Below, piece by piece: positions 31,963-47,200 of a DNA stretch of 64,000 nt. The translations under genes were made by a program, and so were the position numbers. The first letter of the stretch is position 1, and every line of letters begins with the position of its first letter. Below the pieces are notes generated by a model, which ran no database searches, had not been told where the DNA came from, and saw nothing but the letters and a program-made list of their open reading frames with translations. This DNA is from Cytophagales bacterium (GTDB lineage Bacteria > Pseudomonadota > Gammaproteobacteria > Burkholderiales > Burkholderiaceae_C): assembly GCA_030054145.1 (NCBI GenBank), contig JASGCK010000011.1:3684-67683 (forward strand), given 5' to 3'.

Positions 31963-32039
31963 AATTAATTGGGGACAGACCCTAATTAAATGATGTCGCC
32001 AAAGGCGAGCATTTAATTAGGGTCTGTCCCCAATTAATT
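31963..32039. repeat. REP family 1 inverted pair (perfect 30-bp arms)
   Basis: 'AATTAATTGGGGACAGACCCTAATTAAATG' (31963-31992) and its exact reverse complement (32010-32039) flank a 17-nt loop. The right arm contains the stop codon of the tyrosine transposase. Confidence 0.85.
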
Positions 32040-32723
32040 GCCGCGTGCAGGCCGTCCCGCGTTTTGTTTGATGACGCGTCTTGGCGTGGATGCTTGAATT
32101 TCGGCGGTAAAGGATTCGTCCCCTAGCGCCCAGCCTTTGAATGCGGATTCGGTAAGCAGTTTTTGTTGGTCTTGGCTAATACCTGCTAGCACCAACTCCC
32201 GATAAGCCCGTTCGCGCGAAAACGGCGTATTCCCCAGCGTCCACATCAGTTTGTGAGCAGTCACTAGCGGCTGCAGCTGCTGTCCGATATAGTGCCGATG
32301 CGTTGACCAAGCGTAATTGGCAGGGTCAGTTACCATGCCAGCGCGGACAGGATTGAGGTCAATATACGCCATGCACGCCAGTAAATAACGATCCGACTGC
32401 ACCACGGTCGATTTGTAACGCCCCTCCCACAAGGTGCCCGTATGCTTATGAAAGTAGTTGTAGCTTTGGGTATAGCGCTGCGCCAGTGACTGCATGAAGC
32501 CAGAGAGCGCTTGCTCCGTACTAGGCGTGAGCAGCAAGTGCGTGTGATTGTCCATCAGCACAAAAGCGTGAATAGCGACATCGAATTTCTGTGCGTACTC
32601 TGCCAGCCAAGCCAAATAAGCCTTGCGGTCTTCGTCGGTGTGAAAAATAACCTGCCGATTGTTCCCGCGCTGGATGATGTGATGCGGATAACCCGCAACA
32701 GAAAGCCGAGGTTGCCTAGCCAT
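32034..32723 (-). CDS. REP-associated tyrosine transposase (RAYT; IS200/IS605 Y1 family)
   Basis: 229 aa with 'YPHHIIQRGNNRQVIF', the HUH motif 'DNHTHLLL' and the catalytic Tyr region 'YIDLNPVRAGMV'. REP copies flank it on both sides. Confidence 0.85.
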   Translation of the reverse strand: MARQPRLSVAGYPHHIIQRGNNRQVIFHTDEDRKAYLAWLAEYAQKFDVAIHAFVLMDNHTHLLLTPSTEQALSGFMQSLAQRYTQSYNYFHKHTGTLWEGRYKSTVVQSDRYLLACMAYIDLNPVRAGMVTDPANYAWSTHRHYIGQQLQPLVTAHKLMWTLGNTPFSRERAYRELVLAGISQDQQKLLTESAFKGWALGDESFTAEIQASTPRRVIKQNAGRPARGN

Positions 32724-32733
32724 GCTTGCTCCA

Positions 32734-32760
32734 AATAATTAGGGTCTGTCCCCAATTATT
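32734..32760. repeat. REP family 1, single copy
   Basis: 'AATAATTAGGGTCTGTCCCCAATTATT' lies between the RAYT start and the aroB stop. The aroB stop codon lies inside it. Confidence 0.75.
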
Positions 32761-33859
32761 TTAGCGCCGCAATCACCATGTCGTTGGGGGCGGCTTGTAC
32801 CTTGGCGTGTCCCAGTTTGTCGATAACGACGAATTTAATTTGTCCGCCTGCCGCTTTTTTATCCACACTCATGTGGTGAATGTAGTCATCGGCTGACATA
32901 GACGCGGGTCCTACCGTAGGCAAGCCCGCGCGAGTTATTAACCGCGTCACGCGCTCTACAAACGCATGATCGACATACCCCAAGCTTTGCGATAACCGTG
33001 CCGCCATTACCATGCCGCAACCCACCGCCTCGCCGTGTAGCCATACGCCAAAACCCAGTCCCGCCTCAATGGCGTGACCGAAGGTGTGCCCAAAGTTGAG
33101 CGTTGCCCGAATGCCACTCAATCCCTCGCGCTCATCCAAACTCACCACGCGCGCCTTGATTTCGCAGCTACGCCTTACAGCATAAGCCAAAGCAGGCACA
33201 TCACCCCGCAAAAGCCCGTCCATATTGGCTTCCAGCCATTCAAAGAACGCCCAATCTGCCATGATGCCATGCTTGATCACTTCGGCAAGGCCTGCCGAGA
33301 GTTCTCGCCCAGGCAGCGTTGCCAATGTGCCGATGTCTGATACCACCAGCGCAGGCTGATAAAACGCGCCAATCATGTTTTTACCAATTGGGTGATTGAT
33401 GGCGGTTTTGCCGCCAACCGACGAATCCACCTGCGACAGCAGGGTTGTGGGCACTTGTACAAACGGCACGCCGCGCATATAGGCACTGGCCGCAAAGCCC
33501 GTCATGTCGCCAATCACCCCGCCGCCCAGCGCAAACAAAACTGTTTGGCGGTCGCAGCCATTTTGCAGCAGTGCATCAAAAATCAGGTTTAGCGTTTGCC
33601 AATCTTTGTATGCTTCGCCGTCAGGCAAAATGACCTGTAACACCCGCTGGTATTGACCTGCAAGCGCACTCGCCAATTGCGCGGCATAGAGCGGCGCGAC
33701 GGCGGTGTTGCTCACAATCATGGCGGCGTTGGCTTTGGGTAGCGCGGCATAAGTCGCTGGACTGCCCAGTAACGCCTCGCCAATGACGATGTTGTAACTG
33801 CGCTCGCCCATGTCGATATCGACAATGTCAGGCAAGGTATTGGGGGAATTAGATGACAC
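32756..33859 (-). CDS. aroB: 3-dehydroquinate synthase
   Basis: 367 aa (GTG start) with '[10 protein letters not shown]', '[13 protein letters not shown]' and '[12 protein letters not shown]'. Confidence 0.93.
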
Positions 33860-34385
33860 CTGTGAGCTCCAATTTCGATTGAATTTGATGGATGAGATGG
33901 CTCATCGACGGACGTGATGTTTCATACGTATCGTGCGCCGTCTCAAGGTACAGCGGATGCCGCGTGGCGTACAAATCGCGTAGCTTGGCGAGCGGATCAC
34001 TCACCTGCAAAAGCGGGCGCGTGCCATCGTGCCGAATGCGGCGATACAGCTCCTCTGGCGTGGCTTTGAGGTAAATGCAGTGCGAGCGCGTATTCAAATG
34101 TTCGCGGTTTGCCAGCCGCCCGCAAGCACCGCCGCCCGTTGACAAAATCGCGTTATTTTTGAGCGTCAACTCTTCGATGACTGATTCTTCTAAATCACGA
34201 AAACGCTGCTCGCCCTCTTGCTCAAAAAACGTGCGCAGCGAATAGCCTAAGCGCTCCTCGATGACGTGATCGGTATCAAAAAAATCGAGTTTCAAGCGGC
34301 GTGACAAAGCCCGCCCCAAAGTCGTTTTGCCACTACCCATTAAGCCGACGAAAGAAATAAGCACGAGGGAAATTCCGAAAAACAA
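33849..34385 (-). CDS. aroK: shikimate kinase
   Basis: P-loop 'GLMGSGKTT' and 'LSTGGG'. The longest ORF starts at TTG 34385. GTG 34364 ('[14 protein letters not shown]') is an equally plausible start. Confidence 0.88.
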
Positions 34386-34426
34386 ATGTCACACAGCGCA
34401 ACACCGTAAGCGGCAATTATCCCCGC

Positions 34427-35155
34427 TCAAAACAACCAAGCCCCCGCGCAGTTGGCGTTGCCTGTAGAAGTCCATGTGTTGGCTACGACACCTGGCACCG
34501 TCATGCCTGCGCAATTGGCGGTCGTATCCGCGCCGTCCGAGGTGCTTTGCCGAAACAAGCCCGTGTACGGCACACCGTCATCGGCCTTTTGATCGACTTG
34601 TTGCAAGATAGCGGCGGTGACCTTCGAGCCCGTGGTCAGCACATTGCGATCAGGCATGGCGGTGGTGAGCTTGTCGTACCAATACACGCCCGTTGCTGAT
34701 GCGGCTACCGTACCAAATTGCAGTGATTGGCTGTACGAGTTAATGGGTGAGTTCCCCGTTGTAGCGGCGGCATTGCCGGTCACACTCATGCAGCTTGCGC
34801 ACGATAAAAAGCTGGTCGCCGTCAAATTTTGAAACACCAAAACCGACTCGCTATTGATGTCAATCCTGCCGTCACCACTGACAACTGAGCCACTTGTCGT
34901 CGAGGCAACAACGCCACTACCAACAAACGAAGCTTGCGCGGCGGTTAAATCCCCCGACATGAGTTGGTAGCGATTTGAAAAACCAAGATAGGCCGTTTGG
35001 ATGCTGCTCTTTTGGTCAATGATGTGGCGCGCCTTCGCTGAGTTAATCAGCTCTTGACCGCGCAGTACACCCGTCACAACCAAGGTGAAGATGACGAGAA
35101 CAATAGCAAGCTCAACCAAGGTAAAGCCGCGAGCGATGCGGCGTTTCATGGCCAT
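34427..35155 (-). CDS. prepilin-type protein, paralog of the two tandem pilins at 46400..48034
   Basis: Leader 'MAMKRRIARG|FTLVELAIVLVIF' with G-1/F+1/E+5. It shares 'LRGQELINSA', 'SC.SCM', 'DQKADDGVPYTG' and a C-terminal Cys...Cys loop with the other two. An alternative ATG at 35149 gives an ATGA overlap. Confidence 0.75.
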   Translation of the reverse strand: MAMKRRIARGFTLVELAIVLVIFTLVVTGVLRGQELINSAKARHIIDQKSSIQTAYLGFSNRYQLMSGDLTAAQASFVGSGVVASTTSGSVVSGDGRIDINSESVLVFQNLTATSFLSCASCMSVTGNAAATTGNSPINSYSQSLQFGTVAASATGVYWYDKLTTAMPDRNVLTTGSKVTAAILQQVDQKADDGVPYTGLFRQSTSDGADTTANCAGMTVPGVVANTWTSTGNANCAGAWLF

Positions 35156-36081
35156 ACTCCTGCGTTGAGCATTTTGGCGGCGAGGGTTGTGGATGACATA
35201 AAGCTCATCAAGTCGTCGTATTCGCCCGTGTTGCTGCTGGCATCTGTTCGTGCGCGCATCACAAACATACGGCGATTAGCGGCGGTTGCGGTCACTCCTG
35301 TTAGTCGTTCGGTTGCATTGACCGTTTGATCGGGTGGTGCATTGCTAGCTGGGAAGGCTTTTGTGACAGAAACGTTATTGATACTGGTTGCGCCATAAGC
35401 ATTTGCGCCCATGGAATACACCACAAAAACAGCGTTGGTACTAACTGAGTAGGCGGGTGATGTGGTGGATGAACACCCTAGCGCGGCTGTCGTGCTGGTC
35501 GTTGTTGCCGGGTTGCCGCAACGGATATCGAGTTGATAAGTATTAGTGCAGCCAAGATTGGTCAAGCCAAAATTGCCACCACAAACATTTACCGAGCCTA
35601 CCTTCTTGCCTACCTGCGTGGTGAGCGGTGTAAATACCGCGTAGCGCAGTCTATTGCTCCAAGCGTCCGCGTTACTAGGGGCGGATAACCCCAGCGTTTG
35701 CCACGGCAGATCACCCCAGCTAGCTTCTTCTGGGTCGGAGTGGTAGTTGGCGGCAGTTGATGCTGTCCCCGCAATGCCTATGCTGCAACCATCAATAAAG
35801 GTAGTTCCGCTCACGGTCGTTGTATGAACATCCTCTATGCCATCACGGTTATCACTTGCAACCGTGTTTGTATTCATATCTGGGCAAGGCAGGCGGCGAT
35901 TTAAGGCAGCAAATCCCACCAATGCCTCAACGGCTCTATCGATATTGTTTTGCGTGTCGGTGTATTGTTGTTCAACAAGGCGTTTACTCATGGGGACGGC
36001 TAGTCCGCCAATGACGAGGGCGACGATAGTCAGCGCTACCGCCAATTCAATCAAGGTGAAGCCACGAGATTGATGAGTCAT
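35146..36081 (-). CDS. minor pilin-like prepilin protein
   Basis: 311 aa with 'MTHQSRG|FTLIELAVALTIVALVIGG'. It shares an 'RRLPCPD' motif with the upstream 514-aa protein. Confidence 0.7.
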   Translation of the reverse strand: MTHQSRGFTLIELAVALTIVALVIGGLAVPMSKRLVEQQYTDTQNNIDRAVEALVGFAALNRRLPCPDMNTNTVASDNRDGIEDVHTTTVSGTTFIDGCSIGIAGTASTAANYHSDPEEASWGDLPWQTLGLSAPSNADAWSNRLRYAVFTPLTTQVGKKVGSVNVCGGNFGLTNLGCTNTYQLDIRCGNPATTTSTTAALGCSSTTSPAYSVSTNAVFVVYSMGANAYGATSINNVSVTKAFPASNAPPDQTVNATERLTGVTATAANRRMFVMRARTDASSNTGEYDDLMSFMSSTTLAAKMLNAGVWP

Positions 36082-36096
36082 AGATACCTCACTTGT

Positions 36097-37641
36097 CTAG
36101 GGGCTTAGTTGAATTAAAACGTCGTTGCTACTCGCGGGTTGTGGAACGCGATAGTTGACGCTGGCTAAGTGGTCTGCTGGGGTTTTTAATGGTGTTGTAT
36201 AGGCCGCATGAACGGTTGCTTTGTTGCTAGAGTCTTCTAAACATCCTGCGATATTGGGCGCGGAGGCAGTGCCTTTTGTTTGATAAGCTTGGCAACTAGT
36301 TTGAGTTGTACGCATTCTTCCGCGCATCAAAATAATGGCAGCAGGGCCATTCGTGCCCGTACCCAAATTAACTCGGGCAGCATCTCTGCAAGGTACAGCT
36401 TTTTTCAAGGTAACAAGCTGAACGGAATCAACAACTGCTGGCGTTCCACGTACACCCGTCTTACTGCCGATGCAGTCTTCGGATACTGCATAGTGACTGT
36501 GTGCCGCCCATCCGTCAAGGTCGGTGGGTACAAATCTTGTTCCAAGATCAAGATCGTTCGCGCCCACAAGTCCGCTACACGTATAGGGCATATAGCCTTG
36601 AAGCAAGGTAGGGTCGCAACTTCCGCCTAGCGTAGAGGCGGCTCCAGGATAAAAACCATTGGCACTTACAAAAGCATGGATGGCGCTGGCGTATAGGTTG
36701 GCAGTGCGCTTTGTGGCTGCTTTTGCAAACTCTTCTGCCGTAATCCAAATCACTTGGTCGTTGAGTTGCTCTCGTCCTACATCCGCCGTGATAAATGTCT
36801 TATAGGAGTTGTTGGCGGTTGCACTTTGGGTATTTTTACTTAGGTTGACGGATGTGAAGTTGGTAATGATGGTTTGATTATTGGCGCGACTATTTCCAGA
36901 AATGTTGACATCAAGGTAGTTTTTGAAATAACTAGGGGCTGACGCTTGTGCATCAACACCCGTAAGCGCACATACTCGATTGGTACCTGTGGCGGATTGC
37001 GTTTGAGCGCCGCCTGCGGGGCCTGGCGCAATGATGACGGCGACGACTCTGTCGGGTGAGTTGGGTGTGGTTGTGGACTCATTTCCCGCTAACAATTTAT
37101 CTTGCCAAGTAATAGTGCCATCGGACGCAACGTATTTAACGGGTTGAATGACCGAAAAACTGCCAAAAGAGTCCGCATTCACAAAGTTTGAGGATGAACT
37201 ACCCGCCTTAAAGTAACCATCTACCGCATACCAAAGGCATTGATGTGCCGCGTCACGAATAACAGGAGTATTCAGAGTCGCCCAAGGGAATAGACCAAAG
37301 GCGTGATAGCCCTCACCTGTCGCAGTTCCAGATCCGCAAGAGCTAGGTGTGCTGCTGTCGCCTGCCGCATTGGGACAGGGTAGTCGCCCATTGATCGCCG
37401 TCAGTATTTGGGCTTGAATCAGTGTCGTGTCGCGACCCACCGCCACATACGTGAGCAGCGCCTCCTTCGCCTGCCGCAGCGCTTCTTGCGTGACCTTGGT
37501 TTGATACGCCCGTGGGTCGCCGCCCCACAGGTCTTTGGTCATTATGGTGACGGTGAGCATGGCTAGGCTGACTAAAAGCAAAATCGCGACCAGACCGCGC
37601 TGCTGTGCGGGTTGACGGCGATAGGGCTGGCGCGGTCTCAT
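36097..37641 (-). CDS. large GspK/PilX-like pilin-related protein (no Glu+5)
   Basis: 514 aa. 'QQRGLVAILLLVSLAMLTV' is a pilin-like hydrophobic N-terminus that lacks E+5. It has a 'GRLPCPN' motif and a Cys-, Ser- and Thr-rich periplasmic body. ATGA overlap with the upstream gene. Confidence 0.5.
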   Translation of the reverse strand: MRPRQPYRRQPAQQRGLVAILLLVSLAMLTVTIMTKDLWGGDPRAYQTKVTQEALRQAKEALLTYVAVGRDTTLIQAQILTAINGRLPCPNAAGDSSTPSSCGSGTATGEGYHAFGLFPWATLNTPVIRDAAHQCLWYAVDGYFKAGSSSSNFVNADSFGSFSVIQPVKYVASDGTITWQDKLLAGNESTTTPNSPDRVVAVIIAPGPAGGAQTQSATGTNRVCALTGVDAQASAPSYFKNYLDVNISGNSRANNQTIITNFTSVNLSKNTQSATANNSYKTFITADVGREQLNDQVIWITAEEFAKAATKRTANLYASAIHAFVSANGFYPGAASTLGGSCDPTLLQGYMPYTCSGLVGANDLDLGTRFVPTDLDGWAAHSHYAVSEDCIGSKTGVRGTPAVVDSVQLVTLKKAVPCRDAARVNLGTGTNGPAAIILMRGRMRTTQTSCQAYQTKGTASAPNIAGCLEDSSNKATVHAAYTTPLKTPADHLASVNYRVPQPASSNDVLIQLSP

Positions 37642-38300
37642 GGTTTGGCTTTCGATGTGGTGGTTGCGGCGGTGGTGGCGGACGAAGCCGCGCCTTCTGG
37701 CGCTGCGCTTGGTGTGGCTAGTGTGGCGGCGGCGGCTTGCCCCGCTGCCCTTTCGGCTTTGGCTTCCTCTAGCGTTTGCGGTCTTGTGAGGCTGTCGCCA
37801 ATTTTGGCGAATTCGGTTTTGCCTTTGGCAACGACGGAGTTCATGCCGATGATTTCGCCCTTGTTATTGCGCACGAGGCTCAGGCCATACGGCAAGCTGG
37901 CTTCGGCGAATGGCTTGCCGTTAATCCACACGCTGATGCGCTGGCCTGCGGGACGGTCGGGGCGGTGGCTTAGGCCTTCGATGCGCAGTACGCTGGGCAC
38001 TTCGACTTCGACTGCGGTTTTGATTTTTGCTTCGATGAGGGCGACGGCCTTCACGTTGAAGCGGTTGTCGTCGATGCGCGAGCGTTCGCTCTCAGTCGTC
38101 AGCAGTCGCCCAAGGCCCAGGCCATAACGCACTTGGGCGTGCGCGGCAGCTGCGATGCAGCCGATGGCAAGAGTGAGGGCGAGGGTGAGTACAGAGGCGA
38201 CCAGCCCAAGCCTTGTGCGCTTCCTTGTGCGCTTTGCCGCGTGGTGTGATGAGGCTTGCGCTGCGGCGCGAGAGGATGGGTGCAGAAGTGAGTTCATCAT
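37638..38300 (-). CDS. hypothetical lipoprotein-like periplasmic protein (PilP/GspC-position)
   Basis: 220 aa. Basic n-region 'KRTRKRTR', h-region and possible lipobox 'LAIGC', about 120 aa of beta-rich sequence, and an Ala/Thr-rich tail. No family recognised by eye. Confidence 0.4.
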   Translation of the reverse strand: MMNSLLHPSSRAAAQASSHHAAKRTRKRTRLGLVASVLTLALTLAIGCIAAAAHAQVRYGLGLGRLLTTESERSRIDDNRFNVKAVALIEAKIKTAVEVEVPSVLRIEGLSHRPDRPAGQRISVWINGKPFAEASLPYGLSLVRNNKGEIIGMNSVVAKGKTEFAKIGDSLTRPQTLEEAKAERAAGQAAAATLATPSAAPEGAASSATTAATTTSKAKP

Positions 38301-38309
38301 GGCACTGGC

Positions 38310-39059
38310 TCAAGGGTTGTAGGCGTTCATGCTGACCCACGTGAGGGCGCAATCGGCCTCAATGCCATCGCCCACAATCTCGTCAGGTGTACGCTGCGCC
38401 TCGGAGTTGCTGGGGCGTTTGAAATTGCACTGCTTGACGCTGAATAAGCCCAAGTTGGCTGCTTTGAGTTCGTCAAAAATAGCAAATACATCACCTTCAT
38501 GCAAGAGGCGCAAGGTCAGTTTCATGTCGGTGCTAAACACCGAAAAGTTTTTAACGGGATCGCCGTTTGGCAGCTTAGCGCCCGCAGTAGGCTGGGGCGG
38601 CGGCACGTTTGTCCCTTCTTTGAATAAGATTTTTTGCGGCGCAATATCGTACTTAATGGTGATGCCCAGCCAGCGTTTTTCGATGGTGCGCAGCTGCTCG
38701 ACCCACTCCAGCCGCTTCTCTTCGCCAAAGATGCCTTTGGCTTCTAAGTCGCGCAAAATCGGCAAGTGTTTGACGATGCTATCGCGCTCTTGTCCACTGT
38801 CGCGCAGTTTGGCTTCGGCATTGGCTTTGAGTCCATTTTGCGTGCTGAGTTTTTGCGATAAATCTTTGTCTTGTTCTTGTAAAAACCAGATTGCGGCAAT
38901 GGCGAGCACTACGATAACGGCAAGCAAAACGGCGGCGCGGCGCAAGTTGCTGGGCCAACTCTTCCAGCTCCATGTGAGGCTATCTTGCGCGGCGGTGGTG
39001 CCTGGATTTTCATCGTCTTCGCCAATTAGCCCCGTTTGACTCTGGATTACCGTTGCCAT
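38310..39059 (-). CDS. bitopic inner-membrane protein, PilO/GspM-like topology
   Basis: 249 aa. A roughly 45-aa acidic cytoplasmic N-terminus, the TM helix 'AAVLLAVIVVLAIAAIWFL', a coiled-coil ('LSQKLSTQNGLKANAEAKLRD') and a roughly 130-aa periplasmic domain. Confidence 0.45.
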   Translation of the reverse strand: MATVIQSQTGLIGEDDENPGTTAAQDSLTWSWKSWPSNLRRAAVLLAVIVVLAIAAIWFLQEQDKDLSQKLSTQNGLKANAEAKLRDSGQERDSIVKHLPILRDLEAKGIFGEEKRLEWVEQLRTIEKRWLGITIKYDIAPQKILFKEGTNVPPPQPTAGAKLPNGDPVKNFSVFSTDMKLTLRLLHEGDVFAIFDELKAANLGLFSVKQCNFKRPSNSEAQRTPDEIVGDGIEADCALTWVSMNAYNP

Positions 39060-40582
39060 AGTTTGACCTCGAAATTCAGTTCAGATTTTTCCTGCCTGCT
39101 AGAGCCCGACAGAGCTGCCTTGGTACTCAGATCTAGCGGCTTTTTGGTAATTTCGGCGCGAAGATTGGGCTGACGATTCAGGTCAGCCAAAAACCTTGCC
39201 AGTGCATCGCGCGTGCCGCGCAGGTCGGTGCTGGCAATGCCGCGAATCGTGCCGCGCATCGAAAGCGTTGAGCTGACTTTGTTGTCTTTGGCGGGCGTGG
39301 GCGGCGTGCCTGCGGCAGGATGTGTTGTCGCCGAATGGGGCGCTTCGGTTGCCCACTGCAACTCATCAATCACCATGCCAGGGTGTCGCTCTAAGACTTG
39401 CCCTGCCGCCACCAAAATGGGACGCATAGAGGGCAAGGTGCTCGCCTCAATGCCTTGCCAACGACTGGCCATCTCCGTTAATTGCGCGGCGGTTAGCGGG
39501 GTTATCGGGTAGGTTTTTGCAATCGCCAAATATTGCTGCGAGGCTCGGTTGTGTGCCCGAGTCGAGGTGTCAATATCCACTTGCTTTTGCCACAGCTGTG
39601 ATGCACCCAAAGCCAAATAAAGCATCGCACAAGCCGCCACAATGGCTGCGCCGATGTAGGTGGCGCTGGTCGCGCGGATGCTTTGGTCGCGCTTGATGTA
39701 AGGCAGTGGCGCGAGCTGTAACGCTGGCTGCTGTTTTGCCAGTGCAGCAACGTAGACTAAATGCGTGAGCGGGCTATCAATCCAGTGGTATTGATCACGC
39801 GCGTGCTGAGTGTCAGCACCGATCGCCTGCGCTGGGCGTGTGTGCTCTGGCAGCACGGTGTACAGGCTCATACCTGCGCGGTCATTTTTAAGTTGACCAT
39901 TGCCAATTAAGTATTCGCGCAGCCGTGCAGTTTCTTGGTACACCGTGGCAAACCACGACACGCCTACGGTTGGCGGATGCAGCGCGAGGCGTGAAAACCG
40001 CACACGACCACCAGCTAGCACCGTTTGGCGAAGCCCTTCGGCGTGCGGCGTAACTAAAACGCCGATTGACTCTTCGCTTTTGAGTGGTTTGACTTTGAGC
40101 AAAGCAATAGCAGCTGGTGTCAGCATGACGGGCGAGTAAACACCCCGAATGCGTACTTCGCAAGTGTGTAGCGCATCCAGCCAAGGGGTGACGGATTCTG
40201 GGCGGCCAAGGGTGTAGCCCAAAACGCGCATTTTGTCGGATTGGTTGCGGCTTTTGCCTTGCATATCCGACCAACGGTAGGGGCTGTCCATGCCCGATTG
40301 CTCCGACATACGGTCAATCCAAACCGAACGCGCCTTGCCGCGCATGAAGGGCATCACACCGCCCCAAAAAGTTTCTTCACTTTGATCGACCAAAATCACC
40401 CAAGGTTTGTTGGGTAATTGAGTCGCCCATTCCGCCAAGTCTTGTGCTTGTTCTAAGCCGCCTTGAAGCTGCACGAGGCTTGCACCGCGTGCGCCCACGT
40501 CGTAAATTTCCGCTTTGCCCGAGGCAAGGTGCAAGATGTAGAGCGGGTGCCGGCTTTTGATAAAGGGAAGGGGATTGCGCAT
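39047..40582 (-). CDS. bitopic protein, GspL / PilM-PilN-fusion-like topology
   Basis: 511 aa. A roughly 310-aa cytoplasmic part, one TM helix 'YIGAAIVAACAMLYLALGA' and a roughly 170-aa periplasmic part. TAATG junction with the platform gene. No actin-like ATP motifs recognised. Confidence 0.42.
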   Translation of the reverse strand: MRNPLPFIKSRHPLYILHLASGKAEIYDVGARGASLVQLQGGLEQAQDLAEWATQLPNKPWVILVDQSEETFWGGVMPFMRGKARSVWIDRMSEQSGMDSPYRWSDMQGKSRNQSDKMRVLGYTLGRPESVTPWLDALHTCEVRIRGVYSPVMLTPAAIALLKVKPLKSEESIGVLVTPHAEGLRQTVLAGGRVRFSRLALHPPTVGVSWFATVYQETARLREYLIGNGQLKNDRAGMSLYTVLPEHTRPAQAIGADTQHARDQYHWIDSPLTHLVYVAALAKQQPALQLAPLPYIKRDQSIRATSATYIGAAIVAACAMLYLALGASQLWQKQVDIDTSTRAHNRASQQYLAIAKTYPITPLTAAQLTEMASRWQGIEASTLPSMRPILVAAGQVLERHPGMVIDELQWATEAPHSATTHPAAGTPPTPAKDNKVSSTLSMRGTIRGIASTDLRGTRDALARFLADLNRQPNLRAEITKKPLDLSTKAALSGSSRQEKSELNFEVKLWQR

Positions 40583-41787
40583 TAGATTTTTCCTCCGCCA
40601 ATCACTGACTCATAAAGCGGCCCTAGCGTAAAGACCATGATGAGTGCCATGATGCCGCCCAAGATCACGGTCATGATGGGCTGCAAACTGGCTTGCAAAT
40701 TCTCCACCGCATCACGCGCTTCGCGGGTGTACATATAGCTCACATTTTTGAGTGATTTATCGAGTGAACCCGTGGCCTCGCCCACGCGCAGCATACTGAC
40801 GACCATTGGCGGAAACAGAGCGCTGCCCGAGAACGCCGCTGACAAACTTTTCCCCTTGGTGATTTGTATCCGAGCACTTTTAATAGCCTCCGCCATCGCT
40901 TGATTGCCGACGGCTTTCTCGACAACTTTGAGCGCATCCGTCACCGTTACGCCCGCCGCATAAAGGATTGCCAGCACATACGAAAACCGCGCCAGTGCAA
41001 TGCGTGACAGCACTTTGCCGAGCACGGGCAGTTTGAGTTTGAGGTTGTCGGTGTGCGTGCGCATTTTGCCTGGGACTTTTGCTACGAACGCAATGAAGGC
41101 CATCCCTCCGCCCACAAACAGTGCCAGCAAAAGCCAATGGTTCAAAATGACATCAGACATCCACATCAGCGCCCGCGTTTGCCACGGCAATTCGATTTGC
41201 ATGGTCTTCAAGAGCTGCGTAATTTGCGGCACAACGTAGCCCAGCATAAAGAGCAGGACACCCGTAATCACCACGGTCACGATGATTGGGTAGGTCAGCG
41301 CTTTTCTGGTTTGGCTCGCCATTTCGTATTGCCATTTAATCGTCTCGGTGAGGTCTTCTAAAACTTCGATGAACTGTCCCGTTTGCTCGCCTGCTTGAAT
41401 CAAATTGACATACACCGAGTCAAACACTTTGGGCTGCGTCAGCATGGCTTGCGAGAGCGTTTTGCCGCTGGACAGCGCATCAATTAATTTGCCAATCACT
41501 TCGCGCATGGCGGAGTTGCCCTCGCCCTCGGACACGTCGCGCAGCGCATCCAAAATCGTCACACCCGCACGCAGCATCATGCTGAGTTGAAAGCTGAAAT
41601 TGAGCAGTTGTTCGCGTCCCGTTTTGGCGGCAAACAGCGTCAAGCCTGGGCGCACAATCGTCGCTTTGAGTAGTAGCTGTCCCGATTGCTCAAGACTCAA
41701 GGCGAGCGCCGTTTGGTCAACCGCTTGGCTTTTGCCAGACTGCGTTTTTCCTTCGGTATTAATGGCTTTCCAGGCGAATACAGGCAT
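40582..41787 (-). CDS. type II secretion / type IV pilus inner-membrane platform protein (GspF/PilC/MshG family)
   Basis: 401 aa. An internally duplicated T2SSF domain ('LSMMLRAGVTILDAL...' and 'LAILYAAGVTVTDAL...') with three TM segments. Confidence 0.9.
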   Translation of the reverse strand: MPVFAWKAINTEGKTQSGKSQAVDQTALALSLEQSGQLLLKATIVRPGLTLFAAKTGREQLLNFSFQLSMMLRAGVTILDALRDVSEGEGNSAMREVIGKLIDALSSGKTLSQAMLTQPKVFDSVYVNLIQAGEQTGQFIEVLEDLTETIKWQYEMASQTRKALTYPIIVTVVITGVLLFMLGYVVPQITQLLKTMQIELPWQTRALMWMSDVILNHWLLLALFVGGGMAFIAFVAKVPGKMRTHTDNLKLKLPVLGKVLSRIALARFSYVLAILYAAGVTVTDALKVVEKAVGNQAMAEAIKSARIQITKGKSLSAAFSGSALFPPMVVSMLRVGEATGSLDKSLKNVSYMYTREARDAVENLQASLQPIMTVILGGIMALIMVFTLGPLYESVIGGGKI

Positions 41788-41802
41788 AGGTTCTTCCTGG
41801 AG

Positions 41803-43488
41803 TTAGCGTTGCACCAAACTGACGACGCGGCTGACTTCTTCGATGGTGCTGTCCCCCGCTAAAACGCGGCGAATAGCATCATCACGCAGCGTGACAAAGC
41901 CCGCACTTCGCGCGTATCTGGCCAGTTCGGGCGGACTGGCATTGGTCGCAACGAGTTCATCCATTTTTTCGTCAAAGATCAATACTTCCATCAACACAAA
42001 TCGACCGCGATAGCCCGATTGACTACAGTGTGCGCAGCCTACGGCTTTGTAGATATGGGTTTTGGTGGCGTCGCCAATGGCTACGCCAAGCAGCTGCTGG
42101 TCGTGCGGGCTTAGCTGGGCAGGCGCTTTGCAATGCACGCACAGTTTGCGCGAGAGGCGCTGACCGATCACGCCAATCATGTTGCCTGCCAAAATTTCGG
42201 AACTCACGCCAATATCGCGCAGGCGCTGTACGGCTGCAAGCGCTGAGTTGGTGTGCAAAGTGGCAAATACTTGATGCCCCGTCATCGCGGCACGAAACGC
42301 CATCTCAGCGGTTTCTTGATCGCGAATTTCGCCCACCAAAATCACGTCAGGATCTTGCCGCATCAAGGCGCGAACGCCGTCTGCAAACGTGAGTTTTTCG
42401 GTAATTTGGGTTTGCCGAATGAGTGGCAGCGGATATTCAATGGGGTCTTCCAGCGTCATCACGTTCACGTCTTCGTTGCTAACGGAGGACAGCACCGAGT
42501 ACAGCGTGGTGGTTTTGCCGCTACCCGTGGGACCCGTTACCAGCACAATGCCTTCGGGTTTGGCCACTGCTGCATTGATGCAGCGCCTTGCGTGATCGCT
42601 GATATCCACACGCTTAAATGGCACGATGTTTTTGTTTTTATCCAGCAAGCGCAGCACAATGTTTTCACCGTGTGCGGTGGGCAAGCAAGCGGCGCGAAAG
42701 TCAATGTCGTTAATGCCCAATTGAAAACCAAAGCGCCCATCTTGCGGCAGGCGACTCTCGGCAATGTTCATGCCTGCCAGCACCTTGAGTTTGACCGCCA
42801 GCCCCGACCAAATGGAGGCGTGCAGTAAATGGGATTGCTTCAAAATGCCATCAATGCGCAGCCGCACACGCAGGAAATACTCGTCTGGTTCAAAGTGAAT
42901 ATCGGATGCTTCGCTGTCATAGGCTTGCTGCAAAATGGCTTCGACAATTTTTTCAATGGGCGGCTCTCGTCCGCCTGTTGCCAAAATGCTTTCAACTGAA
43001 ATGCGTTCACCAAAAACGCGGTCAATTTCGCGGTGCAATTCGGTTTCGGCTGCCAAGCCCAGTTTGACGTGTACAACGCCTTGACTGCGCAAATGTGCCG
43101 TGACTTGATCAATGCCAATTAAATCATGGGGGTCGGATACTGCCAGCAGCACGCGCCCCGTATTCGATTTGGCAACAGGCAACATTTTGTGGTACCGCGC
43201 CAACGCGCCCGAGATCAAGCGCTCAATAGTGGGGTCGGGGCGCTGGGCCGCAATATCGACAACGGGCAGTTGCAATAAATTCGCGCGGATGTCGCGCAGT
43301 ATGGACACAGACATCAAGCCTAAACGGGTGATATGGCTATGCAGCTGTCCGCCAAGTCTTTTTTGCTCCGCCATCGCAATGCCCAGTTCGCTTGACGACA
43401 AATGCTTCTCCGCGAGCAGTTTGTCGGCTAGCTCGCGGTCTGTTTTGCGTAACAAGCCATTGCTGACTTCGCTTGGCAGTGTATTCAT
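41803..43488 (-). CDS. GspE/PilB/MshE-family assembly ATPase
   Basis: 561 aa. Walker A 'GPTGSGKTTTL', Asp box, Walker B 'DPDVILVGEIRD', His box 'TGHQVFATLHTN' and a tetracysteine 'CVHC...CAHC'. The N-terminal domain is T2SSE_N-like. Confidence 0.92.
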   Translation of the reverse strand: MNTLPSEVSNGLLRKTDRELADKLLAEKHLSSSELGIAMAEQKRLGGQLHSHITRLGLMSVSILRDIRANLLQLPVVDIAAQRPDPTIERLISGALARYHKMLPVAKSNTGRVLLAVSDPHDLIGIDQVTAHLRSQGVVHVKLGLAAETELHREIDRVFGERISVESILATGGREPPIEKIVEAILQQAYDSEASDIHFEPDEYFLRVRLRIDGILKQSHLLHASIWSGLAVKLKVLAGMNIAESRLPQDGRFGFQLGINDIDFRAACLPTAHGENIVLRLLDKNKNIVPFKRVDISDHARRCINAAVAKPEGIVLVTGPTGSGKTTTLYSVLSSVSNEDVNVMTLEDPIEYPLPLIRQTQITEKLTFADGVRALMRQDPDVILVGEIRDQETAEMAFRAAMTGHQVFATLHTNSALAAVQRLRDIGVSSEILAGNMIGVIGQRLSRKLCVHCKAPAQLSPHDQQLLGVAIGDATKTHIYKAVGCAHCSQSGYRGRFVLMEVLIFDEKMDELVATNASPPELARYARSAGFVTLRDDAIRRVLAGDSTIEEVSRVVSLVQR

Positions 43489-43515
43489 AAGCAGGGTCGT
43501 AGGACTTGGGTGGGA

Positions 43516-44334
43516 CTAGGGCGTGGCCGTCAAGATGCGCAGTCTGGCGCGGGCAATATCACGGTTAAATACGGCATTGGTTTGATTTGATAAATTGAGC
43601 GCTAGTACGTATTGCCGCGCGGCATCGCGGGTGCGGCCTAAGCGGTCCAAAGCCAATGCTTGGTTGTAGGCGTAATCGGGCTGCTCTGGCTCCATCGCAC
43701 ACGCACGGCTAAAGGCGCGTTCGGCTTCACCAAAGCGATCTTGGTCGAAGTACAAGACGCCTAGTGTGTAGTGCAAGGCAGCGGGATGCTCGCTTCGCTC
43801 TAACAAAGATTGGAAGCGCGATTCTTCCGCCTGCAAATCACCCCCCGAGATTAAAAAAATCGCACTGCTGGCAGCGCTGTCGCGTGGGTAGAGTTCAATC
43901 AAACGGCGCAGCGTTGACAAGGCTTGCTCGGTGTTGCCCAGCGCGTAGTGCGCGTAGGCAATGCCCAGCAAGGCATCGCGCTGCGTAGGGTTGCGAGCCA
44001 GCGCTTGGCTATATGCCTCACGTGCAGGACTAAATTGATTTAGCTGCAAAGCTTTGTAGCCGCGCAGCACATCGGGATCAACGGAAGAGGCCAGTTGACC
44101 GCGTTTGATTTGCGGTGGTGGATCGACTTGATCCATCACGGTTTGCGCTGTTTGGATGTTGGGATTGGTGGTGGCGGTGGTGGCGGTGGTGGCGGTGGCC
44201 GAGGTGGCCGAAGCGGCATTGCTGCTGGCGTTCACATTGACGGGCGCACTTTTAGGACGACGCTGGGCCTGCGCGTTGGCTTGCGCTACCACTAAGCAAA
44301 GCGCGATGAAGAGACTCGATAAAAGTAATTTCAT
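43516..44334 (-). CDS. secreted TPR-repeat protein (MshN-position)
   Basis: ATG 44334 overlaps the secretin stop (ATGA). Signal peptide 'MKLLLSSLFIALCLVVAQANA', an Ala/Thr run 'SATSATATTATTATT' encoded by a GGTGGCGGT repeat, then TPRs ('AREAYSQALARNP', 'AERAFSRACAMEP'). Confidence 0.75.
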   Translation of the reverse strand: MKLLLSSLFIALCLVVAQANAQAQRRPKSAPVNVNASSNAASATSATATTATTATTNPNIQTAQTVMDQVDPPPQIKRGQLASSVDPDVLRGYKALQLNQFSPAREAYSQALARNPTQRDALLGIAYAHYALGNTEQALSTLRRLIELYPRDSAASSAIFLISGGDLQAEESRFQSLLERSEHPAALHYTLGVLYFDQDRFGEAERAFSRACAMEPEQPDYAYNQALALDRLGRTRDAARQYVLALNLSNQTNAVFNRDIARARLRILTATP

Positions 44335-46310
44335 TTGGGTGCTCCCCATGCTTGTGCTGCTGTGCCGCTAAAGAACGTACTGGTCGGCAGCTGCGATTTG
44401 TACTCTTTGTAGTCGCCTGTAATTGACGCGTCCTTAATCACCACGGGGCGCATAAAAACAACCAATTCAGTCTTGGTGCGCGAGGTGCTGCGTTGCCCCG
44501 TCAACGTACCTAGCACGGGCGTGCGGTTCAAGCCTGGAATGCCTTGCTCGGCCGAGATGTCGGACTCTTGCATGAGTCCACCCAGCACCGCGATTTCGCC
44601 ACTTTGCACACGCAAAATGGATTCCAACTCGCGCGACTGAACCACAGGAATTAAGTTGGTAATGGGCGGCGTGGCGGTCAGTAGTGCAGGATTGGGATCG
44701 ACGAGGGTGCTAATGACCCGCGTGATGCTGGGATGCACATTGAGCGTTACGTCGCCCGCATCCGAGATTTGCGGTGTCACCGTCATCACAAAGCCCACAG
44801 GCACGGTGTTGATGTTGGACGTATAGACCGCTGGCGAAAGCAAAACCCCCGTATTGCTGATGGAGGCGGGCGTGTAGGACAGCGTAACGTACACGTAGTT
44901 GTCAATCACTTTGATGATAGCGGTTTGGTTGTTAATCACGGAGAGCTTGGGGCTTGATAAAACCTTGGTTTTGCCAAAGCTCTCTAGCAAACTAATGGCG
45001 GCCGAGATGCTGCCCCAAACCGTATTGGTTGTACCCGTATTGGGGTAACGCAACGTGGCGGAGGTTGCATTGGTCACGGATGAGGAGGGTGTCAAATTGA
45101 TACTCAATCCAGTTGCTGCGCCATTGGTGATGAGTTGCGACCAGTTAATGCCCGATTGCGATGCGGCGCTGAGTTGCACTTCCACAATCGTCGCCTCGAT
45201 CAGCACTTGGCGGCGTGCGCCCGCCATCACACGGTCGAGAAATGCACGCACGCGTTCGTGACCTTTGGAGGTGGTGTTCACGCCGACCACGCCCGACTCC
45301 TTGTTCACCATGAGCGGATTGTTTGTGTTGCCCGTGCCGCCTGCGCCCGTACCGCCTGCGCCGCCGCAAGTCAGTGCGCCCGTGGTTGCCGTCTGTGCGC
45401 TGCCTGCCGCTGCACCACCGCCCGCCGCCACGTTGCCCGCCGCCGCATTGCCCGTAGCAACAACGCCATTGCCCAATACGGATGCGGTGCTAGATGTGGG
45501 CGCTGTGCGCAGGCTGTTGCTGTCCATCACTTGGCGCATTAAGTCGGCCGCAGCTGCGGAGTTCGCGCTCGCACCCCCAGCGCCCGCCGCGCCGCTGCTT
45601 TGCAGCGCCTTGGTCAGCTCCAGCGCCACCCGCAGACGGTCATCGCGCTCTTGGCTGATTTGGCGCGTGATTTGCTCGTCGCGCTGATTGCGGTTTTGAT
45701 TAGCCGTCAGCACGATTTGACAAACGTTAGAGACCAAGGTGTCCCAAAATCGATTGTCCGCCGTTGATTTGATAGACGAATCCGATCCACCCGCGCTGCT
45801 GACTGCTGCGCCGCCCAGCGAGGAACTGACGGAGACATTGCTACTGGACTGACGCAGCAAATTGACGTAATCAATGGTGTAGTTTTGCAGGTAAGGCGCA
45901 TCGGGCTGGACACGCAGCAAACTGCCGTTAATCTCGTAGCGAATATCGGTTTGCGCAGCAATGCGCTCCAGCAATTGCGGCAGTGTTTGGTCAGTCGCGT
46001 TCAACGTGACGCGCCCGCCGACCGAGGGATGAATGTCCACATTCAGCTTGTTGTCGCGTGCCAAAGCAAACAGCAGCGTTTTGACTGATACATCGTTCAC
46101 CACCACGCTAAACACTTCCTGCGCGGCACGTGGCACGGGCGCTGGCGGCATGGCGGGAAGACGCACGGGCTTCATGCTAGGCGGCGTGACGGCAGCAATG
46201 ACTTCGGGCTTGGCGCTGACGTGGCGATCGCTCATCACCTGCGGCGGCAAACCACAAGAGCAAAGCAAAAAGCTTGTGGCAAAAGCAAAGGTGGAGAGCG
46301 CAAATTTCAT
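44331..46310 (-). CDS. secretin (GspD/PilQ/MshL family), probable lipoprotein
   Basis: ATG 46310 gives 659 aa with signal/lipobox 'MKFALSTFAFATSFLLCSCG'. The C-terminal secretin domain has 'GEIAVLGGLMQE', 'GIPGLNRTPVLGTL' and 'TELVVFMRPVVI'. A roughly 100-aa Ala/Gly/Ser/Thr low-complexity insert lies mid-protein. Confidence 0.88.
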   Translation of the reverse strand: MKFALSTFAFATSFLLCSCGLPPQVMSDRHVSAKPEVIAAVTPPSMKPVRLPAMPPAPVPRAAQEVFSVVVNDVSVKTLLFALARDNKLNVDIHPSVGGRVTLNATDQTLPQLLERIAAQTDIRYEINGSLLRVQPDAPYLQNYTIDYVNLLRQSSSNVSVSSSLGGAAVSSAGGSDSSIKSTADNRFWDTLVSNVCQIVLTANQNRNQRDEQITRQISQERDDRLRVALELTKALQSSGAAGAGGASANSAAAADLMRQVMDSNSLRTAPTSSTASVLGNGVVATGNAAAGNVAAGGGAAAGSAQTATTGALTCGGAGGTGAGGTGNTNNPLMVNKESGVVGVNTTSKGHERVRAFLDRVMAGARRQVLIEATIVEVQLSAASQSGINWSQLITNGAATGLSINLTPSSSVTNATSATLRYPNTGTTNTVWGSISAAISLLESFGKTKVLSSPKLSVINNQTAIIKVIDNYVYVTLSYTPASISNTGVLLSPAVYTSNINTVPVGFVMTVTPQISDAGDVTLNVHPSITRVISTLVDPNPALLTATPPITNLIPVVQSRELESILRVQSGEIAVLGGLMQESDISAEQGIPGLNRTPVLGTLTGQRSTSRTKTELVVFMRPVVIKDASITGDYKEYKSQLPTSTFFSGTAAQAWGAPK

Positions 46311-46391
46311 AGGGTTTCTCAATAGATGTTCTCTAGTTTTGAAAACAATTGTCTTGTTATGAATAATTTTTAGCTAATAATTTTTATCAAT

Positions 46392-46420
46392 ATAAAAACT
46401 TAAAACAAGGACACTCCTTG
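46392..46420 (-). terminator. weak terminator/attenuator-like hairpin overlapping the pilin stop
   Basis: On the - strand: 'CAAGGAgtgTCCTTG' followed by 'TTTTAAGTTTTTAT'. The stem is only 6 bp and the loop only 3 nt. Confidence 0.3.
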
Positions 46421-47200
46421 GCAAATGGCTGGTGGACTAATGAGCCATGCATAAGAAGTTTGAGCTGCTAAGCTAGGTGTGACGCAGGCTAAACTGGCGT
46501 GACCACTTGCGGTTGAGAAAAAGTCGCTGTATCTAATTTTCCCCGTGGCGGGTGCGCCGTCATCATCTTTTCTATCCATTTCCGCCAGTAGTCGGGAGTC
46601 GATTCCGTCCCCTGTTGAGAGCATCGGTTTGGTGCCTTCGTTTTGCATGGTTGAGAGATAGAACGAGCCCGCAGCATTGCTATTGGGCATGGTCGCGGGG
46701 TTGGGGTAGGTGAAATAGAGTGGACGCCCCAAAAAGTTGTACGGACTATTCAAAGTCGTGCCGCCAGTGGTGCCAGAAGTGGTGGGTGTCATGCACTGCG
46801 AGCAGCTAATCAAGCCTGCTTGCGCGAGGTTATTAAAAAATTCGGGACTGTCATTAATCGGAACCCAGCCATCGCCCGCAAAATCAGTCGCACTCGTATT
46901 CGTTGCAACTAATGCGCCGCCCAAGTTGGCATCCGACAACAAGCCGCTACCCAGCTTGACCGTCACCGCCTGCGCCAAGGTTAAATCCCCTGGCAGGGCG
47001 TTGTAGCGATCTTGAAAGGCATAAAACGCAACTTGAATCGCTTTTTGTTGATCCATGATGTTACGCACCCGCGCCGAGTTAATCATTTCTTGACCACGCA
47101 AAATTCCACCAATGAGCAAACCGATGACCACCAGCACAATCGCTATCTCAACGAGGGTAAAACCTCGTTGAGATGATGATTGAGCAGCTGATCGAGTCAT
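46400..47200 (-). CDS. type IV pilin-like protein (large, 266 aa)
   Basis: 'MTRSAAQSSSQRG|FTLVEIAIVLVVIGLLIGGILRGQEMINSAR', 'SCSQCM', 'DRKDDDGAPATG' and a C-terminal Cys...Cys loop ending 'CQGVSLF'. Confidence 0.8.
   Translation of the reverse strand: MTRSAAQSSSQRGFTLVEIAIVLVVIGLLIGGILRGQEMINSARVRNIMDQQKAIQVAFYAFQDRYNALPGDLTLAQAVTVKLGSGLLSDANLGGALVATNTSATDFAGDGWVPINDSPEFFNNLAQAGLISCSQCMTPTTSGTTGGTTLNSPYNFLGRPLYFTYPNPATMPNSNAAGSFYLSTMQNEGTKPMLSTGDGIDSRLLAEMDRKDDDGAPATGKIRYSDFFSTASGHASLACVTPSLAAQTSYAWLISPPAICQGVSLF

Follow-up and report, generated by a model that had tools for sequence, protein, structure and literature searches.

The described systems closest to the locus considered here are the mannose-sensitive haemagglutinin (MSHA) pili, classed as type IVe and present in Vibrio, Aeromonas and Legionella, the type II secretion system (T2SS) and the type IVa pili (T4aP). 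Their inner-membrane alignment subcomplexes correspond to one another: MshI, MshJ and MshK are the counterparts of GspL, GspM and the homology region (HR) of GspC in type II secretion, and of PilM plus PilN, PilO and PilP in the type IVa pili. PulL corresponds to a PilM-PilN fusion, and PilP bridges PilNO and the secretin (PMC10191384). The MSHA pilus is poorly characterised and has been found in few Proteobacteria (PMC10191384). This analysis deals with a stretch of 64,000 nucleotides (the window: positions 3,684 to 67,683 of contig JASGCK010000011.1, deposited as a Cytophagales bacterium but more probably from an uncultured freshwater betaproteobacterium) and with three consecutive genes of one long operon within it, called here the triad, whose products of 511, 249 and 220 amino acids (aa) are compared with these subcomplexes. 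The three genes occupy 37638–40582, with the coordinates and lengths exactly as given in an earlier note made from the letters alone, and lie on the minus strand, as do all features listed below unless the plus strand is indicated.

Quite likely, the proteins of the triad are highly diverged homologues of MshI, MshJ and MshK and make up the inner-membrane alignment subcomplex in a type IV filament machine related to MSHA. The earlier note had recognised only topological resemblance to GspL/M/C or PilM-N/O/P and had left the choice between highly diverged homologues and non-homologous replacements. The resemblance extends well beyond topology, because the 511-aa protein has an actin-like (PilM/GspL) fold and aligns with GspL, the 249-aa protein has a PilO fold and the 220-aa protein has a weak but specific, in-register profile match to MshK; homology is supported, and replacement is ruled out for the 511- and 249-aa proteins and improbable for the 220-aa protein. 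The topologies themselves had been described accurately, since Kyte-Doolittle analysis finds one hydrophobic segment in each protein (residues 305–331, 36–64 and 29–57, respectively), and so had the position directly after the platform gene, a T2SSF-type gene at 40582–41787 that precedes the 511-aa gene.

The 511-aa gene (39047–40582) encodes, on the basis of its reading frame, AlphaFold2, Foldseek and hhalign, a predicted GspL/fused-MshI (PilM plus PilN)-like inner-membrane protein. In the AlphaFold2 model obtained from the family alignment (predicted local distance difference test, pLDDT, 81.2; predicted template modelling score, pTM, 0.62), residues 1–290 (39713–40582) form an actin-like (acetate and sugar kinase/Hsc70/actin, ASKHA) cytoplasmic domain, assigned from DSSP, Foldseek and the family consensus, which consists of two RNaseH-like halves (beta-beta-beta-alpha-beta-alpha-beta-alpha), has a 1C-like insert and lacks the 2B subdomain. 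A single transmembrane (TM) helix (residues ~305–331; 39590–39670), on which AlphaFold2 and the Kyte-Doolittle profile agree, is part of a longer helix (293–357). It is followed by a predicted periplasmic alpha-alpha-beta-beta-alpha-beta-beta domain (residues 365–510; 39053–39490) of the ferredoxin-like type seen in PilN and in the periplasmic part of GspL, the elements being, in DSSP order, helices 365–381 and 387–398, strands 403–413 and 437–446, helix 454–469 and strands 474–480 and 502–510. The pLDDT of this domain is mostly 65–85, with two disordered loops, and its fold was read from the order of the secondary-structure elements.

Comparison of the model with the PDB by Foldseek ranked first PilM of P. 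aeruginosa (5EOU, E 4.7e-11), followed by the cytoplasmic domain of EpsL from V. cholerae (1YF5, E 1.6e-9), PulL (5TKW, E 5.2e-8), PilM of T. thermophilus (2YCH, E 9.9e-8) and GspL of V. vulnificus with GspE (4PHT, E 1.1e-7), the probability being 1.00 for the first, second, third and fifth of these. The highest template modelling (TM) scores normalised to the target (0.48–0.55) were those of EpsL 1YF5, PulL 5TKW and GspL 4PHT, and FtsA, PPX and MreB were weaker in the ranking than the PilM and GspL structures. The modelled fold is therefore that of PilM/GspL, and the layout of the whole protein is that of GspL or of the fused MshI (~480 aa) that occurs in some MSHA loci. With GspL it shares the predicted actin-like domain lacking a nucleotide site (by inspection), the single TM helix and the ferredoxin-like periplasmic domain. 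It differs from the type IVa pili in that PilM and PilN are fused and the 2B subdomain is absent.

At the sequence level, hhalign aligned the 511-aa family with three GspL sequences over 306 collinear columns (P 6e-4) that run from the cytoplasmic domain through the TM helix into the beginning of the periplasmic domain; 60 column shuffles averaged 16.4, with 27.8 as the highest value, and none reached the observed score of 37.3. Residues 307–412 also gave a weak collinear profile match to MshJ. Neither the protein nor its distant relatives matched Pfam T2SSL, GspL_C, PilM_2 or PilN, or NCBIfam GspL, at E<=1. The absence of actin-like phosphate-binding motifs, already pointed out in the earlier note, was confirmed by inspection of the model hairpins and of family conservation: the DxG phosphate-1, DxG phosphate-2 and GG adenosine motifs were not seen, and 'LHLASG' and 'VTPHAEG', in which 'TPH' is nearly invariant, occupy the hairpins where the DxG motifs would sit. 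The protein differs in this respect from type IVa PilM, an ATP-binding actin-like domain with DxG and GG motifs; since the missing nucleotide motifs are the condition of GspL, they are not evidence against homology.

The likeness to GspL is also the starting point of a rather improbable alternative that reads the cluster as a type II secretion system, with the triad corresponding to GspL, GspM and a GspC without PDZ domain and the large 'pilins' forming a periplasmic pseudopilus that pushes substrates through the secretin. The only collinear sequence-profile signal of the 511-aa protein is indeed to GspL, and the protein lacks nucleotide motifs (by inspection) as GspL does. The triad differs from GspL, GspM and GspC in having no match to Pfam T2SSL, GspL_C, T2SSM or T2SSC, and the neighbouring core genes discussed below bear on this alternative.

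The 249-aa gene (38310–39059) encodes a predicted bitopic protein of the MshJ/PilO/GspM type, as judged from the reading frame, AlphaFold2, Foldseek and hhalign. Its AlphaFold2 model reaches a pLDDT of 85–96 over residues 30–250 and comprises an acidic, Trp-rich cytoplasmic segment (residues 1–40), a TM helix (~41–60), a coiled coil to residue 107 and a predicted ferredoxin-like alpha-beta-beta-alpha-beta-beta domain (residues 116–247). The elements are helices 37–107 and 116–129, strands 134–144 and 171–185, helix 189–200 and strands 205–214 and 233–247, the first helix combining the TM segment and the coiled coil in agreement with the order of acidic N-terminus, TM helix, coiled coil and periplasmic domain proposed earlier. 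This topology is the one shared by GspM and PilO. Foldseek gave a single match below E 1e-3, PilO of M. xanthus in a model of the type IVa machine (3JC8_Oa, E 1.8e-4, 225 columns), and the next matches were two structures of P. aeruginosa PilO, 2RJZ (probability 1.00) and 5UVR (target-normalised TM-score 0.53). The modelled fold is that of PilO. Prediction with AlphaFold followed by Foldseek, as the earlier note had advised, has in this way led to a PilM/GspL-type and a PilO-type fold for the 511- and 249-aa proteins, respectively.

For sequence comparison, profiles of MshK (46 non-redundant sequences), MshJ (37 sequences), MshI1 and fused MshI were built from 80 genuine MSHA loci taken from metagenomes. 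The 249-aa family matched the MshJ profile in hhalign with P 2.5e-3 and a score of 27.7, which none of 60 shuffles reached; these averaged 14.2, with 20.5 as the highest value. Pfam PilO, T2SSM and T2SSM_b remained unmatched in all 38 members of the 249-aa family at E<=10.

Immediately N-terminal of the TM helix, the cytoplasmic segment of the 249-aa protein (residues 1–40; 38940–39059) carries a nearly invariant LTWxWxxWPxNLRR motif. The Trp-rich terminus loosely recalls the peptide of PilN that binds PilM, but its identification as a PilN-type 'INLLPWR' PilM-binding peptide was not supported, as the hhalign matches to PilN and MshI2 cover only the TM helix and the coiled coil.

The 220-aa gene (37638–38300) encodes a secreted periplasmic protein that is probably of the MshK/PilP/GspC-HR type, as suggested by alignments, hhalign and natural fusions. 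It consists of a signal peptide (residues 1–56), a conserved N-terminal peptide with the pattern RYGxGLGRLLTxxxERxxIDxxRF (57–81), a variable linker, a beta-rich core (residues ~99–172; 37785–38006; 'L.I.G....RP.RP.GQR.sVWING..y.E..LP.Gl.lvRn..Gev.G', delimited by hhalign), a conserved TRPQTxxEA motif and a low-complexity Ala/Thr tail. The hydrophobic segment (29–57) is signal-like and follows a KRTRKRTR stretch, the basic n-region that the earlier note had described. The possible 'LAIGC' lipobox named there did not hold up, being confined to the window sequence: all homologues have ordinary, signal-peptide-like N-termini ending in AQ and no conserved Cys. Lipoprotein status was accordingly rejected as a feature of the family, which differs in this from the type IVa pili. 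The cleavable signal likewise differs from the N-terminal TM anchor of GspC, and neither a PDZ domain nor a coiled coil is present.

Searched with hhalign against the MshK profile, the core of the 220-aa family gave P 6.3e-4 and a probability of 28% over 50 in-register columns, with 'L.I.Gi...vWInG.py.E..LP.Gl.lvR' lying over MshK 'L.L.sI...AIINg....Gd.V.g.rV..I'. The score of 26.0 was reached by none of 200 shuffles (mean 10.0, standard deviation 1.9, maximum 16.5), and the controls were at null level (11.5 for the reversed profile; 9.9 against MshJ and 11.1 against MshI1 across families). In genuine MshK the region aligned to this core is matched by Pfam T2SSB (34.1 bits, above the cut-off), T2SSC, Y4YQ_C and CdsD_C; this T2SSB/T2SSC-type region presumably represents the small type of domain, present also in GspC-HR and PilP, that binds the secretin. 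A hidden Markov model (HMM) of the conserved core found only 28 proteins among 1.84 billion representatives, none of them tied to a named family, and the distant relatives share the N-terminal peptide (LGRLFxTPxERxxLDxxR), the variable linker and the beta-core ('inGiv.R.dG...vWiNG'). Two of the proteins, P0141 (376 aa; locus L013, 5678–6808) and P0145 (455 aa), are natural fusions of a 249-like N-terminal and a 220-like C-terminal part in which a linker replaces the signal peptide. The 220-aa protein is probably a diverged and enlarged connector of the MshK/PilP type, as far as can be judged from these alignments.

It is unlikely that this protein is instead a non-homologous replacement of PilP, MshK or GspC, that is, a new connector family with the LGRLFxTPxER peptide and a 'WING' beta-domain of different fold alongside true homologues in the 511- and 249-aa proteins. 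Such a replacement would agree with the tiny size of the family (the 28 matches just mentioned), with the lack of matches to Pfam T2SSB, T2SSC and PilP in both close and distant members, with the empty search of PDB sequences by the extended profile and with the absence of a usable structural model. One distant 220-like protein, P0151, shows a sub-threshold match to the LptF/LptG periplasmic domain (E 2e-5, 24.3 bits vs a cut-off of 27.9), and from comparative electron cryotomography the non-homologous TcpR/TcpD have been suggested to replace PilMNOP in type IVb pili (PMC10191384). On the other side, MshK is the only family that rises above the null for the 220-aa profile, in register, beyond all 200 shuffles and with the cross-family controls at null, and the position and size of the gene, its export signal and the arrangement of N-terminal peptide, linker and small beta-domain fit PilP/MshK; the LptF/LptG match is confined to that one protein. 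This match (P0151; locus L015, 4916–5404), the only hint of another fold for the beta-core, was set aside as isolated and probably spurious.

At the sensitivity of HMMER the earlier statement that the proteins carry no family signature is correct for Pfam, NCBIfam and PDB sequences. None of the three reaches the cut-off of any Pfam or NCBIfam family; PilO, PilP, GspM and GspC are not matched even weakly (E<=10) in the 38 members of the 249-aa family and the 27 members of the 220-aa family; scans of the distant relatives against Pfam and NCBIfam gave nothing relevant, and the family profile HMMs, the extended ones included, returned only noise from PDB sequences. With hhalign, single reference sequences (Hof and Gsp of E. 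coli, Msh of Legionella, Exe of Aeromonas) gave no signal and sets of 2–4 reference sequences gave one only for the 511-aa protein against GspL. Confident full-length profile matches with conserved nucleotide-binding residues were looked for and did not appear. Genuine members of the MSHA family behave similarly: MshI1 of Aeromonas (the PilM-like half; locus L018, 4370–5245) has no Pfam match at E<=0.1, and genuine MshJ and MshK score only marginally. Since even genuine MshI1 escapes Pfam, the MshI/J/K branch of the PilMNOP/GspLMC superfamily is poorly modelled, and being missed by Pfam is only a question of degree within it.

The core genes upstream of the triad suggest a machine nearer to MSHA than to the T2SS. 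The secretin (663 aa; 44331–46322; Pfam Secretin) has NCBIfam pilus_MshL as its best model (232.8 bits, vs 143 for GspD and 98 for PilQ), ranks MshL above GspD and GspD above HofQ in tblastn, and includes an N0/STN-like domain at residues 95–139 (a sub-threshold Pfam STN match). It is followed by a tetratricopeptide repeat (TPR) protein (277 aa; 43516–44349; Pfam TPR families) in the position of MshN, present between secretin and ATPase in all relatives; the acquisition of MshN is the defining step and a hallmark of MSHA (PMC10191384). The extension ATPase (561 aa; 41803–43488; Pfam T2SSE and an N-terminal MshEN domain) aligns in tblastn over its full length with MshE (35% identity) and with GspE only over the C-terminal 382 aa. 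The platform protein (401 aa; 40582–41787; two Pfam T2SSF domains) is closest to MshG, with 141 bits to that of Aeromonas vs 87–93 to GspF in tblastn. The reported distribution of PilMNOP homologues, known only from T4aP, MSH and T2SS (PMC6668835), fits an MSHA-related placement of the cluster.

These genes also bear on the type II secretion alternative. Neither a retraction ATPase nor MshM is encoded in the operon, as that alternative would have it, the best NCBIfam model of the platform protein is GspF, and the GspE score of the ATPase nearly equals that of PilB. Yet the secretin, the platform protein and the full-length ATPase each resemble their Msh counterparts (MshL, MshG and MshE) more than their Gsp counterparts (GspD, GspF and GspE), a TPR gene occupies the MshN position, and MSHA systems also lack PilT (PMC10191384). 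Pfam and NCBIfam detect no equivalogs of the GspG/H/I/J/K-type pseudopilins in the cluster, only N-terminal methylation motifs, and the pilins (242–311 aa, in 2–4 paralogues) are unlike GspG.

Several observations weigh against an MSHA-type alignment subcomplex. The Foldseek TM-scores of the 511-aa protein are moderate (0.41–0.55 normalised to the target), the PilO matches of the 249-aa protein other than 3JC8 have E values of 0.04–0.14, and the 220-aa protein was folded only as a single sequence, with pLDDT <50, so that its model is unusable. All sequence-profile methods remain below conventional significance, hhalign probabilities being just 12–28%; shuffling of columns provides a lenient null, as local structure is lost in the process, and part of the 511/GspL score comes from the matching of TM helix to TM helix. 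The core genes are only 29–35% identical to the Msh references (tblastn; platform, ATPase and secretin), and the 232.8 bits of the secretin stay below the pilus_MshL cut-off of 250.2. Furthermore, the gene order is L-N-E-G-I-J-K, with two blocks swapped relative to the canonical I-J-K-L-M-N-E-G seen in Aeromonas and Legionella, and an MshM-type AAA ATPase is absent.

When the systems are set side by side, the cluster resembles MSHA in the combination of an actin-like plus PilN-like protein, a PilO-like protein and a small secreted protein with a probable beta-domain of the secretin-binding type, in the weak but specific profile matches of the 249-aa protein to MshJ and of the 220-aa protein to MshK, and in the apparent partners (MshL-like secretin, TPR protein in the position of MshN, MshE-like ATPase with MshEN and MshG-like platform). 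It differs from MSHA in that sequence similarity of the triad is below HMMER detection, that I-J-K stand after L-N-E-G and not before them, and that MshM is missing. The 220-aa protein is about twice as long as MshK, with an extra conserved N-terminal peptide, linker and tail, the 249-aa protein has a Trp-rich cytoplasmic N-terminus of 40 residues, the pilins are unusually large and the hosts are uncultured Comamonadaceae/Burkholderiaceae, not Gammaproteobacteria. To the type IVa pili (HofMNOP in E. coli) belong the best overall structural matches, PilM 5EOU and PilO 3JC8_Oa and 2RJZ, and the 220-aa protein may follow the same functional logic as the PilP bridge; the secretin, however, is neither adjacent to aroK nor PilQ-like.

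The filament operon ends directly upstream of aroK-aroB (32756–47200 was compared with E. coli hofMNOPQ-aroK-aroB, locus L009), the slot of hofMNOPQ in E. coli; in Pseudomonas and Neisseria this slot is occupied by pilMNOPQ. The window itself contains no canonical pilMNOPQ.

The three genes are functional, fast-evolving and under purifying selection. Among 5.8 billion proteins, homologues of conserved length form 47 (511 aa), 54 (249 aa) and 27 (220 aa) clusters, counted at 90% identity; they come from metagenomes or metagenome-assembled genomes (MAGs) only, are labelled 'hypothetical' and have no precomputed Pfam domain. Eight genome loci, all from MAGs of uncultured Comamonadaceae or Burkholderiaceae, carry the whole cluster in identical order, continuing to aroK-aroB-transposase-gltB in strict synteny. 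Identity of these relatives to the window is ~86% for the ATPase, ~80% for the platform protein and ~70% for the secretin, and ~62, ~60 and ~55% for the 511-, 249- and 220-aa proteins, respectively. In the triad genes the proportion of non-synonymous changes (pN) is 0.25–0.42 vs a saturated synonymous proportion (pS) of 0.62–0.78, and non-synonymous changes have accumulated 2–4 times faster than in the ATPase gene.

It is extremely improbable, in view of these figures, that the reading frames are spurious, decaying or mis-called and the sequence non-coding or pseudogenised. The annotations in databases are solely 'hypothetical' and long antisense open reading frames (ORFs) overlap the triad genes, as one might expect of such sequence, but length-conserved homologues occur in dozens of metagenomes under strict synteny, pN is far below pS, the AlphaFold2 folds of the 511- and 249-aa proteins are confident and the gene junctions are translationally coupled. 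This coupling is indicated by a TAATG between the platform and 511-aa genes, a 13-nt overlap between the 511- and 249-aa genes, a 9-nt gap between the 249- and 220-aa genes and an ATGA between the 220-aa gene and the following 514-aa gene.

In the eight MAG loci as well as in more distant clusters, the triad comes after the platform gene without exception. Around P0141, P0142 and P0151 the order is (secretin-TPR-)ATPase-platform and then proteins of ~520, ~210 and ~140–160 aa, or a fusion, and the HMMs of the 511-, 249- and 220-aa families score 170, 81 and 36 bits on the most distant triad. The identical arrangement, together with the recognition of distant triads by all three models, argues that the triad has been inherited as a set. 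In L013, the fused cluster adjoins genes for an ATP-binding cassette (ABC) transporter, an isocitrate/isopropylmalate dehydrogenase and a VTT-domain protein, as the cluster does on its other side in the window.

By analogy with the described machines, from which every protein-protein contact of the triad is drawn, the nucleotide-free actin-like domain of the 511-aa protein would hold the N-terminal part of the ATPase at the membrane beside the platform, as GspL does with GspE (PDB 4PHT). The protein would cross the membrane once and present its ferredoxin-like periplasmic domain, which may pair with the equivalent domain of the 249-aa protein through coiled coils and alpha-beta-beta modules. 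To this pair the 220-aa protein would attach by its conserved N-terminal peptide, a contact proposed with the natural fusions in mind, where the C-terminal end of the 249-like domain adjoins this peptide, and its beta-domain would contact N0 of the MshL-like secretin. With the motor aligned with the outer-membrane pore, the large pilins could be polymerised and extruded; the resulting filament might be either a surface pilus or a secretion pseudopilus, two outcomes that the sequence does not separate.

The proteins of the triad form new, unmodelled sequence families whose folds and functions fall into established classes, and the machine itself is a known type in rearranged form; neither a new principle nor a new kind of machine is involved, and the known mechanism is unchanged. 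Three 'hypothetical' families can be annotated as alignment-subcomplex proteins in a filament system related to MSHA, and a rearranged, MshM-less MSHA variant with large pilins is added for planktonic uncultured Comamonadaceae. Some filament systems are assigned to a generic class when components such as GspLM go unidentified (PMC6668835); profiles of the triad, which are easily built from its alignments as new models for the MshI/J/K branch, could help detection pipelines to recognise clusters of this type as complete. A more novel outcome could come only from the fold of the 220-aa protein. At its furthest, and this is improbable, the cluster would be a previously unclassified type IV filament subtype, restricted to date to uncultured freshwater Burkholderiales and a few more distant MAGs, in which the 220-aa connector, in some cases fused to the PilO-like protein, has a new, non-PilP fold and a 13-gene system has taken the aroK-aroB slot of pilMNOPQ.

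Twelve genes of the operon have been listed, from a pilin of 270 aa to a prepilin of 242 aa. The former (47222–48034) and a paralogue of 266 aa (46400–47200), both with N_methyl matches, stand upstream of the secretin; two prepilin-type genes with N_methyl/IV_pilin_GFxxxE matches (311 aa, 35146–36081; 242 aa, 34427–35155) lie near the other end, the second being the last of the operon before aroK. The pilin-like proteins encoded at 34427–35155, 46400–47200 and 47222–48034 are unusually large (242–270 aa) and are mutual paralogues with 35–52% identity. The relatives have 2–4 tandem pilin paralogues upstream of the secretin, and these tandem copies suggest pilin diversification or variation.

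Between the triad and the prepilin-type genes lies a conserved, family-less gene for a protein of 514 aa (36097–37641; identified as a reading frame and by synteny), without any match in Pfam or NCBIfam scans. Its product has an N-terminal hydrophobic segment (residues 13–38, Kyte-Doolittle) after 'QQRG' and lacks the GFTLIE prepilin motif. The gene is syntenic in all relatives and, with 42–49% identity, is the fastest-evolving of the operon; it may encode a GspK/PilX-like or tip-associated component.

In the ATPase, residues 14–73 (43300–43488) comprise two degenerate MshEN-type repeats ('RLGxxLLxxGLLxxxxLxxxLxxQ'), a repeat type associated with the binding of c-di-GMP (cyclic diguanylate). 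As judged by eye, the first copy has substitutions at several key Arg and Gly positions, and the second is spaced differently.

Beyond the end of the operon are aroK, aroB, a gene for an IS200-like Y1 transposase and gltB. The transposase gene (32034–32723; Pfam Y1_Tnp, E 4e-15), located between aroB and gltB, is found at the same position in six of the eight relatives with 67–85% identity, the other two loci stopping short of it, which suggests a domesticated tyrosine transposase or one associated with repetitive extragenic palindromic (REP) sequences and not an active insertion sequence.

The antisense ORFs lie on the plus strand at 38329–39039 (236 aa), over the 249-aa gene, and at 37612–38127 (171 aa), over the 220-aa gene; their translations are of low complexity, rich in Ser, Ala and Cys and without supporting evidence, and they were taken as shadow ORFs of the coding strand.

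As regards the source of the DNA, the proteins have exact matches in an NCBI MAG that bears the label 'Cytophagales bacterium' (QM533_108xx), and the gltB of the window is 91% identical to that of a Burkholderiaceae MAG. Because all syntenic relatives are MAGs of Comamonadaceae or Burkholderiaceae and gltB matches likewise, mis-binning or mislabelling has probably given the source MAG or contig an incorrect 'Cytophagales' label.

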